A program made the translations under genes and the position numbers. The notes beneath the pieces are model-generated. The model ran no database searches, was not told where the DNA came from, and worked only from the letters and a program-made list of their open reading frames with translations. A stretch of DNA of 64,000 bases from Dictyostelium discoideum (Eukaryota): contig CM000153.2 in the NCBI GenBank assembly GCA_000004695.1, positions 4,512,001 through 4,576,000 on the forward strand, in the 5' to 3' direction. Below, in pieces: positions 8,436-16,203 of this stretch (the stretch's first letter is position 1; every line of letters begins with the position of its first letter).

Positions 8436-8952
8436 TTAGAATGGTATAAATTCAGAATTTGAAGAACCACCAAAGGAATTAAATGAATCATTGTCAAAAG
8501 AGTTATTTGAAAAGAATGGATATGGGTCACCATTATTTGAATGTGAAGACATGAAAGGATTATTTGGTATAGTACTATTGTTATTATTATTATTATTATT
8601 GTTGTTATTATTATTAGTACTATTATTATTATTGCTGTTATTATTATTGTTATTGTTATTATTATTATTATTATTATTATTGTTATTATTATTATTACTA
8701 TTTTGAATTTGGGTAGAAGAATTTGATAAACGAGGAGGTGAATTTGGTAATGGTGCGACAGCAGTACCTAATTGTCCACCAACACCTTCAGTTATAAAAA
8801 GGTCCAATAATTCACTTAATGTTTCAGAATCTCTACTTGAAGCGTTACGAAATACTCTCCTAACTTTTTCTGCTCTTTGTCTTGGATCTAATTGTGTATA
8901 TGCGTTCATCATTTGTTTAAAACTATCTTCAAATCCACTAATATTATTATTA

Positions 8953-8984
<32 letters not shown>

Positions 8985-10001
8985 TATATTACAGTTATTA
9001 TTGTTACTAGTACTAGTATTACTATTATTATTATTATTATTATTGTTATTATTTAACGTATTTGATGAAGAATTTAAATTATTTGATGATGTATTATTTA
9101 AAGTTGAAGTTAATAAATGAGAATTTACAAGGGTTGGTGATGAAGATGGTGAAGATGAAGGTGAAGATGAAGTTGAAGAAGGTGGTGAAGGTAAATTAAT
9201 TGCAGAGGAAGAGGTTATATTATTTGAAGAGGTAGTGGTTGTGGTGGTTGTAGTGTTGTTATTGTTGGTGGTGGAGGTACTACCACTTAAACCTGCTTGT
9301 TGTTGTAAAAGTTTTTCAATTAATTTTTGTTGTTCATGTTGTTGATGTTGAATTTTTGAGACGGATTCCAATAGGATATCATTCCAAGTACGCTTTTTAG
9401 GAGGTTGCTTTTTTTTTAATTGTTCAGGTTTTGAGATGACTTTAATAGAGTGAGTTAATGCGTAGAGTCCTTTGATGGGTTCTTTGGAGATTGGGTCTTG
9501 TCCTTCGATTTTCACACGAAAGAACATATCTTCGTGTTGTGAAGTTAATACTTTAATACGTAATTCAATGTTTACCAATTCACCAGTCTCATTGGGTGAT
9601 GCTTTATGTTCGACCGGTTTCACTTTAACGAAATCTACTTCCTTCTCTTCATTGGTATCACAATCATAGAGTAATGTCGATTCAAATGCAACACAATTCA
9701 AATCGATTTCATTTGCTTTCTTTAATCTTAATTGAACATTGAATGGACTATTCTTTATAACCACTTTAATATTCTTTTGTAAACCATTTAATGTTACTTT
9801 CTCTTCAAATGGTGATGATTGTGATGCTAATTCTAATCTTTCTTCATGTGTTGATAATTGAATTTGCATTTGTTGTGGTTGTTGTTGTTGTTGTTGTTGC
9901 TGTTGCTGTTGCATTTGTTGTTGTTGCTGCTGCTGCATTTGATGCTGCATTTGTTGAAACTGTGGTATGTATTGAATTTGCTGGTCAAAATTATTAATCA
10001 T
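8436..10001 (-). CDS. Q/N-rich nuclear-factor-like protein, paralog 1 (possibly CudA-family putative transcription factor), 521 aa
   Basis: A complete ATG(10001)-to-stop ORF with a good start context, aaagaATGa. It has an N-terminal poly-Q and a central conserved block, IKVVIKNSPFNVQLRLKK...LLYDCDTNEEKEVDFVKV...SQHEDMFFRVKIEG...LYALTHSIKVISKPEQLKKKQPPKKRTWNDILLE. Long S/T/N tracts follow, then a C-terminal block FKQMMNAYTQLDPRQRAEKVRRVFRNASSRDSETLSELLDLFITEGVGG. It is clearly paralogous to 14380-16203. I have not verified the CudA-family name. Confidence 0.7.
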
Positions 10002-10040
10002 TCTTTTGAAAATGCTATATTTTAATTATTATTATTATTA

Positions 10041-10072
<32 letters not shown>

Positions 10073-14125: not shown

Positions 14126-14216
14126 TTTTATTATTATTTCAATTACAATGAATTCATTAAAATATTAAAAAAAAAAAAAAAAAAAAAACACCAACAACCC
14201 TTTTTTTTTTATTTTC

Positions 14217-14253
<37 letters not shown>

Positions 14254-14379
14254 TATGCACTGTCTATTTTTAACACGTTTTTAAAATTTAAAATAATAAT
14301 TTTTTATTTTATTTTATTTTTAATTTCAATTTTTATAAATAAATATTAATACAAATGTATTGTTATAAGGGATGTAATA

Positions 14380-16203
14380 TTAAACTATTGGTAATTGTAA
14401 TAAATCATTTGTTAGATTTGAATTATTTGGTTGATGGTGATGATGATGGTGATGATTATTTACAGAGATTGAATTATTCATTTGACTTTGCGTATTGTTA
14501 TCATTTGATGATGAAAATAATGAAGAATATAAAAGTTGTTGATTATTCATTGGATTTAAAGTTGATTGAGGAACGAAAAAGTTCATACATAAACCTTGAA
14601 ACCTTTCTAATTCTTTCTTGGATGGACAATTCTCACAGAAGCAACCAATACTATTGTTATTATTATTGTTACCTCCTTTTGTTGATGATACATCACTATT
14701 TGCATCACCAACACCAAGTTCATCCATAAATGTAGCAACCAATTGCTCTAAATCATCAGAACGTAATTGTTCAACCATTTTCGTAATAATATCTTTTCTT
14801 TCAGATTCTGGTACGTATTTAAATGCTTCGACAACTCTATTAAATGAATTTTGAAAATTACTCGATTGATTTTGTTGTTTTTGTTGTTGTGGTTGTACAG
14901 GTTGTTGTTTTTGTTGTATAGAAGAAGCAGAAGAAGAGGAAGTAGTAGTGGTAGTATTATTATTAGTCGAAGATACTTTTTGTTGTTTTGATTGATGATT
15001 TAATAATTGTTGTTGTAAATGTTGTTGATTTTTCTGTTTTGAAATATTGAAATCGATTGAATCATTATCGTCATCATCATTGTTATCATCGTCATCAGAT
15101 TCATCGGATTCACTTGAATCATTATTATTATTATTATATTTATTATTACCATTTGAATAAGAACTTAATGAAGGGGTAGAAGAATTTGAAGAATCATCAC
15201 AAATTGAACCACCACCATTTTGACAATTGGAATTACTATTATTATTATTATTATTATTATTTTGATCTTTTTTTGAACAATAAGGTTCCATATCGAATTC
15301 AATTAAATGTTGTTGATATAAATTTTTAATCCATTTACTTTGACTATCTTGAAACTTTTGTAATTTCTTTAATTTATCTGTAAGAATTTCATGAAATGTC
15401 TTTTTCTTTAATATTGGTATACCTTCTTTTTTAACATGATCAACTTTTGAAACGATTCTAATTGGATGAGAAACAACACAAAGATTATAGATTGGATTTG
15501 GTAATTGGGAATTTAAATTTGCTATTGAATTACCACCTATATTATTCAAGATGGTCATAATTGGTTCATTAGGTGATGGGGATGGTACACTTGTATGACT
15601 TATATGTAAAACTGCAAGAAACATTGAGCCTTGATGTTGTGATGAAAGAATACCAACCTTTACATCAACAACAACTTCAGTACCATCTTCACTAACGGTT
15701 GCAACATATTGTAATGGTTCATTATGAATAAAATCTACCATTTTTGGTGGATCACAATCATAGAGAAGTGTAGCTTTAATAACATAATTATGAAAATTGA
15801 ATTGTGGATCGTTTGATTTCATTGAAATACCAAATGGTGTGTTTTTAACTACAACATGAACTTGTTTTATAAAATTATGTGGTTTTTGAAGTTGACAAAG
15901 AACTTGTTGTACATAATAAGGATTTAAAGAATTTAAAGAATAAACACTCGATTGGTTATTGTGTTGTTGTTGTGAATGATTTTGTTGTTGTTGTTGTTGC
16001 TGTTGTTGTTGACCTTGTAATTGTAAAATTTGTTTATTTTTTAAAGCATTTGCAGCTGGACTACCATTTTTATTTATAATTGGTGAACCTCCATTTTGAA
16101 TTGAACTTATTAATGTTTGTAACTTTGGTGGAGAAAATTTAATCTCTTCTACAGCCACCGCACCTTGTTTTGTAATTTCAATTAAAGCTTGATTATAAAT
16201 CAT
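14380..16203 (-). CDS. Q/N-rich nuclear-factor-like protein, paralog 2 of the 8436-10001 gene (possibly CudA-family), 607 aa
   Basis: A complete ATG(16203)-to-stop ORF. Its central block VHVVVKNTPFGISMKSNDPQ...ATLLYDCDPPKMVDFIHNEPLQYV...SSQHQGSMFLAVLHISH...IYNLCVVSHPIRIVSKVDHVKKEGIPILKKKTFHEILTDKLKK and C-terminal block FNRVVEAFKYVPESERKDIITKMVEQLRSDDLEQLVATFMDELGVGD are colinear with the same blocks in paralog 1. It also has a Cys-rich CFCENCPSKKELERF segment. Confidence 0.7.
   Translation of the reverse strand: MIYNQALIEITKQGAVAVEEIKFSPPKLQTLISSIQNGGSPIINKNGSPAANALKNKQILQLQGQQQQQQQQQQNHSQQQHNNQSSVYSLNSLNPYYVQQVLCQLQKPHNFIKQVHVVVKNTPFGISMKSNDPQFNFHNYVIKATLLYDCDPPKMVDFIHNEPLQYVATVSEDGTEVVVDVKVGILSSQHQGSMFLAVLHISHTSVPSPSPNEPIMTILNNIGGNSIANLNSQLPNPIYNLCVVSHPIRIVSKVDHVKKEGIPILKKKTFHEILTDKLKKLQKFQDSQSKWIKNLYQQHLIEFDMEPYCSKKDQNNNNNNNNSNSNCQNGGGSICDDSSNSSTPSLSSYSNGNNKYNNNNNDSSESDESDDDDNNDDDDNDSIDFNISKQKNQQHLQQQLLNHQSKQQKVSSTNNNTTTTTSSSSASSIQQKQQPVQPQQQKQQNQSSNFQNSFNRVVEAFKYVPESERKDIITKMVEQLRSDDLEQLVATFMDELGVGDANSDVSSTKGGNNNNNNSIGCFCENCPSKKELERFQGLCMNFFVPQSTLNPMNNQQLLYSSLFSSSNDNNTQSQMNNSISVNNHHHHHHHQPNNSNLTNDLLQLPIV

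Follow-up and report, generated by a model that had tools for sequence, protein, structure and literature searches.

Gene content of the locus

The window, i.e. the whole stretch of 64,000 nucleotides that was analysed, contains two single-exon genes for CudA-like transcription factors on the reverse strand, cdl3 (DDB_G0286447; 8436..10001, -) encoding 521 aa and cdl1a (DDB_G0286351, “Developmental gene 1062”; 14380..16203, -) encoding 607 aa, the stop codon being counted in both sets of coordinates and 4,378 nt separating the two ORFs. The 607-aa ORF showed 100% identity over 100% coverage with NCBI DDB_G0286351, which was named cdl1a by Kin et al. 2022 (PMC8808424). The 521-aa ORF is identical to the gene called at the annotated locus L001 and its strings are identical to those of DDB_G0286447, which is found among the CudA-like alignments of the same study (Kin 2022 Data S2, PMC8808424), the name cdl3 being taken from its position in Table 1 of that paper. 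The locus is therefore a known one, already published and correctly identified: it was described on D. discoideum chromosome 4 with cdl1a located 4,379 bp upstream of cdl3 (Kin 2022, Curr Biol 32:428, PMC8808424). Rfam and tRNA scans of the entire 64-kb window gave no match.

Between the two genes and on the same strand lies a third gene, hereafter gene X (11376..14125, -), composed of four exons (14125-13665, 13588-12805, 12723-12309 and 11797-11376, the third intron being 511 nt long). When spliced, the model yields the 693-aa protein that is annotated in this location in GCA_054883475.1. This product holds no known domain, a Pfam scan returning no match, and its comparison with cdl1a and cdl3 by BLASTP gave only E>3, which agrees with the earlier description of the middle gene as unrelated to its neighbors.

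Shared architecture of Cdl1A and Cdl3 and their family

In a reading made from the sequence alone, hereafter the sequence-only reading, the two ORFs were proposed to be colinear over three blocks, and the core, the basic linker and the C-terminal helical block indeed resemble each other beyond chance. BLASTP with composition adjustment aligned cdl1a and cdl3 outside their Q/N tracts (E=6e-16, 28% identity over 243 aa), so that the similarity extends beyond low-complexity sequence. Each block was further scored by Smith-Waterman against shuffled sequence: the core block obtained 217 versus 34.5+-5.8 in the shuffles, a score reached by 0/500 of them, and the basic linker/helix block obtained 92 versus 28.3+-5.5 (0/5000). 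The C-terminal block is weak in this pairwise comparison (45 versus 23.7+-4.4, reached by 4/5000) and is backed by two near-invariant family columns, F357 and F361 in cdl3 numbering, and by confident helices in the models of both proteins. The AF2 models display in each protein a high-confidence Ig-like beta-sandwich, corresponding to the beta-rich central domain previously expected, and in addition one long helix and a unit of three helices.

Cdl3 starts with an N-terminal poly-Q region (residues 1-48; 9858..10001, -), in which a helix is modelled over residues 13-36 at low to moderate confidence, followed by the predicted Ig-like beta-sandwich DNA-binding domain (residues 55-190; 9432..9839, -) and its motifs VIKN, LLYDCD, TSQH and IKVIS. 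The next segment (residues 191-238; 9288..9431, -) consists of a basic linker (KPEQLKKKQPPKKR), of which K191, K196, K197, K202 and K203 are near-invariant, and of the long helix (206-238). The C-terminal three-helix unit (residues 352-406; 8784..8948, -; helices 352-369, 376-386 and 389-406) is modelled with a pLDDT of ~90 and is 91-96% identical in group 3/4 orthologues.

In Cdl1A, residues 1-36 (16096..16203, -) form two strands of the conserved domain (8-13 and 17-23) and a short helix, with a pLDDT up to 94 and a glutamate, E19, near-invariant across the family. The Q-rich low-complexity tract (residues 43-98; 15910..16077, -), whose pLDDT is <50 over 50-98, comes after these two conserved N-terminal strands (residues 8-23) and thus lies inside the conserved domain. 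Consequently, the N-terminal poly-Q that had been attributed to both proteins stands for Cdl3 and not for Cdl1A, where the tract interrupts the domain. The main body of the predicted Ig-like beta-sandwich DNA-binding domain (residues 107-252; 15448..15885, -) carries the motifs VVKN, LLYDCD, SSQH and IRIVS and a lineage-specific loop at 204-239, and precedes a basic linker (KVDHVKKEGIPILKKK) and long helix (270-298), which together occupy residues 253-298 (15310..15447, -). The C-terminal three-helix unit (residues 447-495; 14719..14865, -; helices 447-462, 466-479 and 482-495), aligned to residues 357-408 of Cdl3, is the element initially perceived as an “acidic helix block”. A fourth conserved element, CFCENCPSKKELERFQGLCMNFF (residues 521-543; 14575..14643, -), contains a family-wide CxCxxCP motif that Cdl3 does not have. 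This motif was found in 81/132 family members, including most of the checked members of the cdl1/cdl1a lineage and Balamuthia; it is missing in cdl1b, in C. fasciculata cdl1, in the dictyostelid cdl3 proteins and in the Physarum homolog.

CudA had been named as the candidate family in the sequence-only reading, and this guess proved right: both proteins are in the published CudA-like alignment and both match trimmed CudA (DDB_G0284465, from Kin 2022 Data S2) by BLASTP, with 46% identity over 113 aa for cdl3 (E=1.3e-23) and 26% over 135 aa for cdl1a (E=1.5e-12). The Pfam family PF28397 (DG1062_N) is present in the precomputed record of cdl1a and of each homolog listed in both homolog searches. 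The precomputed record of D. discoideum cdl3 has no Pfam entry, although PF28397 is recorded for the orthologues from T. lacteum, A. subglobosum and H. album. A direct Pfam scan of the two proteins, on a model set without PF28397, assigned no family. The D. discoideum and D. purpureum cdl3 proteins were not among the results of the homolog search made with full-length cdl3, probably because Q/N words dominated it. The family signature (VVKN-PF, LLYD, V-DF, SSQH, I-V-SKP followed by a basic run, and a C-terminal F..F) occurs in both proteins, as do the near-invariant columns K83, L110, Y112, D113, V122, D123, S154, Q155, H156, S190, K191, K196/197 and K202/203 (cdl3 numbering) and the two phenylalanines mentioned above. 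D. discoideum has six of these CudA-like (“Cud”, PF28397 DG1062_N) genes, cdl1a and cdl3 among them. The family has been reported from Amoebozoa only, with an expression confined to development.

Origin of the pair and conservation of its linkage

The order cdl1-X-cdl3 is kept in D. purpureum, P. violaceum and T. lacteum, each of these three group 3/4 loci having an orthologue of gene X in the equivalent place between cdl1 and cdl3. These are three of the nine group 3 and 4 species in which order and orientation of cdl1 and cdl3 were reported to be conserved, an adjacency that is maintained even where the published gap is 150-264 bp, as given for D. rosarium (150 bp) and D. citrinum (264 bp) (Kin 2022, PMC8808424). 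Outside of these groups the picture differs: cdl1 and cdl3 were found on different contigs in H. album, with gene X not nearby, cdl3 stands alone in A. subglobosum, and the two genes are given as unlinked in group 2 species (Kin 2022 Table 1, PMC8808424).

According to neighbour-joining (NJ) trees, which were built on trimmed alignments of a sample skewed to cdl3-like hits and are not maximum-likelihood trees, cdl3 and cudA cluster to the exclusion of cdl1 in 190/200 bootstraps and cdl3 and its Physarum homologs do so in 100/100. Given the bipartition (cdl3, cudA / cdl1, cdl2) at 95% NJ support, cdl1 and cdl3 are not sisters under any rooting. The identities of cdl3 follow the same line, with 46% to cudA, about 50% to the Physarum homolog and 28% to cdl1a. 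A dS comparison, suggested by the sequence-only reading, was carried out and gave 1.46 between cdl1a and cdl3, a saturated value with third-position identity at the composition-expected level, which can be read as “old” and nothing finer. We infer from these trees that cdl1 and cdl3 are probably ancient non-sister paralogs, whose split would be older than the divergence between Dictyostelia and Physarum.

The age of the pair could also be conceived in terms of an ancient tandem array in an early amoebozoan, of which the cdl1-cdl3 adjacency would be a relic, disrupted before groups 1 and 2 diverged from each other. Such an array would imply that cudA and other paralogs dispersed from it. In the dictyostelid phylogeny, groups 1+2 and groups 3+4 are sister branches, hence one gain and one loss of linkage are equally parsimonious within Dictyostelia, and the order and orientation conserved across the nine group 3/4 species speak in favor of such an array. 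We nevertheless regard this scenario as unlikely, although it retains some weight, since cdl1 and cdl3 are not sisters in the NJ trees, since no second family member occurs within 10 kb in H. album or A. subglobosum, or downstream in Balamuthia (the outgroup evidence on linkage being one Balamuthia contig that extends 679 bp only on one side), and since the linkage was interpreted as derived in the published analysis (Kin 2022, PMC8808424).

Far less credit can be given to the model of the sequence-only reading, a diverged local duplication into which a multi-exon gene was later inserted. The common strand and orientation of the two genes, their distance of 4.4 kb and their clear colinear homology are in its favor, but cdl3 is closer to cudA and to the Physarum homolog than to cdl1a, the split between cdl3, cudA and cdl1, cdl2 is well supported, the dS is saturated, and no linkage of the pair exists in H. 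album and A. subglobosum (this study) or in P. pallidum and D. fasciculatum (Kin 2022, PMC8808424). Moreover, the equal placement of gene X in the three group 3/4 loci gives no sign of a later insertion. A recent tandem duplication was rejected, the genes not being closest paralogs, their dS being saturated and their linkage being absent in group 2.

We conclude with high confidence that the two ORFs are cdl1a and cdl3, ancient non-sister CudA-like paralogs which are part of a three-gene block common to groups 3 and 4. Cdl1a, gene X and cdl3, all on one strand, would constitute this block, which does not appear to be a recent tandem duplication broken by an insertion. As for what kept cdl1(a)-X-cdl3 together, shared cis-regulation or a joint action may be imagined, with Cdl3, for instance, either cooperating with Cdl1/Cdl1A or antagonising it in stalk/cup differentiation, perhaps with the dictyostelid-only gene X in the module; we consider this proposal speculative and rather improbable.

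DNA binding, development and comparison with known systems

The suggestion that both genes encode DNA-binding nuclear-factor-type proteins gains support from their membership of the CudA-like family and from the predicted Ig-like sandwich. Nuclear localisation and sequence-specific DNA binding have been reported in the literature for CudA, Entamoeba CudA and SpaA, with binding to DNA or promoters described for all three, and putative DNA-binding sites are reported to be conserved in Cdl1A (Kin 2022, PMC8808424). The Ig-like beta-sandwich is presumed to be the sequence-specific DNA-binding domain of Cdl1A and Cdl3. The basic stretch that follows it would lead to the long helix, which probably serves for oligomerisation or as a coiled-coil, and the small three-helix unit would close the ordered parts, with disordered Q/N/S-rich tracts in between.

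Published work has placed Cdl1A expression in prestalk and cup cells and, through knockout and rescue, has demonstrated its requirement for cup-cell differentiation and cup gene expression. Cdl1a and cdl1b were reported to descend from cdl1, a gene of stalk morphogenesis, through an event in the group 4 ancestor, which makes cdl1a a published case of a transcription-factor duplication causally tied to a new cell type, the group 4 cup cells. A search of the literature for experiments on Cdl3 found none, and no phenotype is on record; its mechanism is for this reason deduced from homology, and Cdl3 may be a DNA-binding developmental regulator like its relatives.

The models suggest that the sandwich of both proteins belongs to the p53/CP2/STAT-type Ig-fold class, with no specific STAT likeness shown. 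Among the p53-like/Ig-fold domains compared (STAT, CP2/LSF-Grainyhead, p53, Runt, EBF/COE, Rel and velvet), identities are ~5-15% and none stands out, and the CudA-like proteins are devoid of the accessory domains of these families (SH2, tetramerisation, IPT/TIG etc.). That cdl1a and cdl3 would be divergent STATs, as true members of that family, can hardly be believed and was rejected, since the SH2 domain, whose absence alone sets both proteins apart from STATs, and the rest of the defining architecture (the N-terminal four-helix coiled-coil of STATs and their linker domain) are missing from the Pfam scan, which returned no SH2 or STAT match for either protein, and from both AF2 models, since sequence identity to STATs is 10-18% only, since CP2/LSF, p53, Runt, EBF, velvet and Grainyhead score as well as STAT, and since a PDB sequence search gave no STAT match and, with cdl1a, low-complexity noise only.

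The closest known systems are within the family itself. CudA (DDB_G0284465) and SpaA (DDB_G0287317) share with cdl1a and cdl3 the conserved core (VVKN...LxYD...SSQ...SKP-basic), the long helix, the C-terminal helical unit and a developmental expression, and represent orthologue groups other than those of cdl1a and cdl3. They also differ in where they act: SpaA functions in sporulation, CudA in prespore and tip cells, and Cdl1A in cup and stalk cells. The C-terminal Cys motif is kept by CudA and Cdl1A and not by Cdl3.

With regard to the locus as a whole, gene IDs, orientation and distance agree with those of the published cdl1a/cdl3 locus, where both genes were likewise assigned to the CudA-like family and their linkage noted in groups 3 and 4, and nothing essential is different (Kin 2022, PMC8808424). 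The cup-cell story, the family assignment and the linkage being already in print, the present analysis adds no new biology to them. What it brings beyond the published description is the orthology of the middle gene in three other species, the absence of the CxCxxCP motif from cdl3 and the position of the Q tract within the conserved domain of cdl1a.

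Identity of the two ORFs

The minus strand carries two ORFs without interruptions, at 8436-10001 (521 aa) and 14380-16203 (607 aa), exactly where the sequence-only reading had placed them, in a window with a G+C content of about 20% and richer coding islands, as is typical of Dictyostelium. The 607-aa protein is identical over its full length (100%) to D. discoideum AX4 DDB_G0286351, “Developmental gene 1062”, which has PF28397 (DG1062_N) as its precomputed Pfam domain and was named cdl1a (cudA-like 1a) by Kin, Chen, Forbes and Schaap (Curr Biol 2022, PMC8808424). On chromosome 4, cdl3 is reported 4,379 bp downstream of cdl1a in the same orientation (Kin 2022 Table 1, PMC8808424), a distance matched by the spacing in the window (14380-10001 = 4379). 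The strings given for DDB_G0286447 in the supplementary alignments of that study (M-INNFDQQI-QYIP; HEERLELASQSSPFEEKVT...NIKVVIKNSPFNVQLRLKKANEIDLNCV...; PMC8808424) are those of the 521-aa ORF, and another D. discoideum assembly (GCA_054883475.1), 99.1% identical to window 4312-26248, has an identical 521-aa gene called at the cdl3 position. The two ORFs are thus cdl1a and cdl3. Exact proteins for cdl3 and for gene X, the gene between them, were not found in a 15-billion-protein collection or its gene index, which is a database gap and not biology, and which concealed the cdl3 self-hit; the other assembly calls genes with an identical translation for cdl3 and the same product length as our model for gene X.

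The proposed colinearity of the two proteins across three blocks was borne out by BLASTP with compositional adjustment (28% identity over 243 residues of non-repetitive sequence, E=6e-16) and by scoring each block against shuffled sequence with Smith-Waterman. The core block scored 217 (shuffles 34.5±5.8), the basic linker and helix block 92 (28.3±5.5) and the C-terminal block 45 (23.7±4.4). The last pairwise match is weak, since 4 of 5000 shuffles reached this value; the block is kept family-wide, with F357 and F361 near-invariant, and forms confident helices in the AlphaFold2 models of both proteins.

The tentative attribution to the CudA family was correct. With the trimmed DDB_G0284465 sequence of Kin 2022 Data S2 (PMC8808424) as CudA query, BLASTP matched cdl3 at 46% identity (E=1.3e-23) and cdl1a at 26% (E=1.5e-12). 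Every homolog listed in two database searches carries PF28397, and the named organisms among them are all Amoebozoa (dictyostelids, Physarum, Balamuthia). According to the literature, the family is restricted to Amoebozoa and expressed during development only; D. discoideum has six members of it, and cudA, spaA, cdl1, cdl2 and cdl3 are its five orthologue groups.

A conserved three-gene block

Gene X (11376-14125, minus strand) has four exons, introns of 76, 81 and 511 nt and a 693-aa product, in which neither a Pfam domain nor similarity to the cdl proteins was found; its only match in the indexed search was the D. purpureum homolog. Its third intron (11798-12308) is long for Dictyostelium, contains stretches of 28-35% G+C, above typical introns, and gave nothing in Rfam. 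By tblastn, D. purpureum (~60% identity) as well as P. violaceum and T. lacteum (~35-53%) have a gene X orthologue flanked by cdl1(a) and cdl3 with the orientation kept; in H. album gene X is near neither cdl1 nor cdl3. Dictyostelid groups 3 and 4 thus share a three-gene block, rather than a pair split later by insertion. Within it, cdl3 is far more conserved (domain 82-89%, C-terminal unit 91-96%) than cdl1a (60-76%), in agreement with the positive selection reported on cdl1a. In D. purpureum the annotation divides the cdl3 orthologue into two pieces of 150 and 52 aa (10036-10995 of that locus). The gene model is probably broken at a low-complexity tract, since tblastn recovers both the domain (89% identity) and the C-terminal unit (96%) intact. 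The cdl1a-cdl3 distance is 264 bp in D. citrinum, 150 bp in D. rosarium and 3.1-4.7 kb elsewhere (Kin 2022 Table 1, PMC8808424); taken at face value, the two short distances mean that gene X is missing while adjacency persists, the other possibility being a draft-assembly or annotation artefact.

The sequence-only reading saw in this arrangement a local duplication separated by an inserted multi-exon gene, an origin that the shared position of gene X, the trees and the group 2 genomes lead us to reject. In neighbour-joining trees, which are distance-based and sampled with a skew towards cdl3-like sequences, D. discoideum cdl3 clusters with the other dictyostelid cdl3 and the Physarum homolog, leaving the cdl1 clade outside (132 members, 100/100 bootstraps). 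When CudA and cdl2 are added, cdl3 and cudA leave out cdl1 in 190 of 200 bootstraps, so that cdl1 and cdl3 are not sisters under any rooting. The dS suggested for the shared blocks could be computed over the core (1.46) but is saturated, third-position identity being at base-composition expectation. In group 2, cdl1 and cdl3 are on separate contigs in H. album and no family member lies within 10 kb of cdl3 in A. subglobosum; they are likewise unlinked in P. pallidum and D. fasciculatum (Kin 2022, PMC8808424). A Balamuthia homolog is likewise without a family neighbour, on a contig that offers little upstream sequence. Groups 1+2 and groups 3+4 form sister branches of the dictyostelid phylogeny and, if this topology holds, it makes one gain and one loss of the linkage equally parsimonious within Dictyostelia. 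A loss could correspond to an ancient CudA-like array, broken later, which we consider unlikely.

Upstream of cdl1a, about 7.8 kb (16204-24015; 13-20% G+C, many homopolymers and A/T-rich tandem arrays) contain neither a called gene nor an ORF of at least 90 aa, an unusually long intergenic region for the compact Dictyostelium genome; the published cdl1a rescue construct included just 3 kb of it. A three-exon cyclin-domain gene follows (~24016-25272, plus strand; PF08613/PF00134 in the annotated assembly). In P. violaceum and T. lacteum the upstream neighbours likewise include a gene with a cyclin domain, so that the syntenic region may be larger than these three genes. Downstream of cdl3, positions 20933-21359 of the locus in the other assembly (roughly window 4800-5300) gave several blastn matches of 78-98% identity, at 29335-29761 and 50497-50641, probably simple-sequence or codon-repeat tracts.

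Domain architecture and predicted function

AlphaFold2 models built on family alignments give the two proteins a common layout: a beta-sandwich of ten strands (cdl3 residues 55-190, pLDDT 91-98), then a basic stretch, a helix of about 30 residues and a C-terminal three-helix unit, the rest being disordered. Residues 204-239 of cdl1a form a lineage-specific loop. This predicted sandwich places the domain in the p53-like Ig-fold class. The “STAT-like” label is acceptable as a description and is not specific; neither protein is a STAT, since Pfam scans and models revealed no SH2 domain and no STAT coiled-coil.

A CxCxxCP...ELE motif (14575-14643; cdl1a residues 521-543) occurs in 81 of the 132 family members. 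Among these are cdl1a, Balamuthia and a protein of D. purpureum that is similar to CudA around the Cys motif. Every dictyostelid cdl3 lacks it (cdl3 C-terminus, 8436-8783), as does the Physarum homolog, and the cdl3 lineage may have lost a metal-binding or regulatory element here.

DNA or promoter binding has been reported for CudA, Entamoeba CudA and SpaA. The cdl1a gene is expressed in the tip and in prestalk and cup cells; null mutants lack both cup cells and cup-gene expression and are rescued by Cdl1A-YFP. The literature searched yielded no functional study of Cdl3, which by analogy would be a DNA-binding regulator acting like these characterised relatives.

The locus, gene names, family and 4,379-bp linkage were already published. 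To these, the present analysis adds the conservation of gene X within the block, a model-based fold assignment for cdl1a and cdl3, the lack of the CxCxxCP motif in cdl3, and a difference in the placement of poly-Q, which is wholly N-terminal to the domain in cdl3, whereas in cdl1a the Q-rich tract (15910-16077, residues 43-98) is internal, splitting the first two strands (residues 8-23) from the remaining sandwich.
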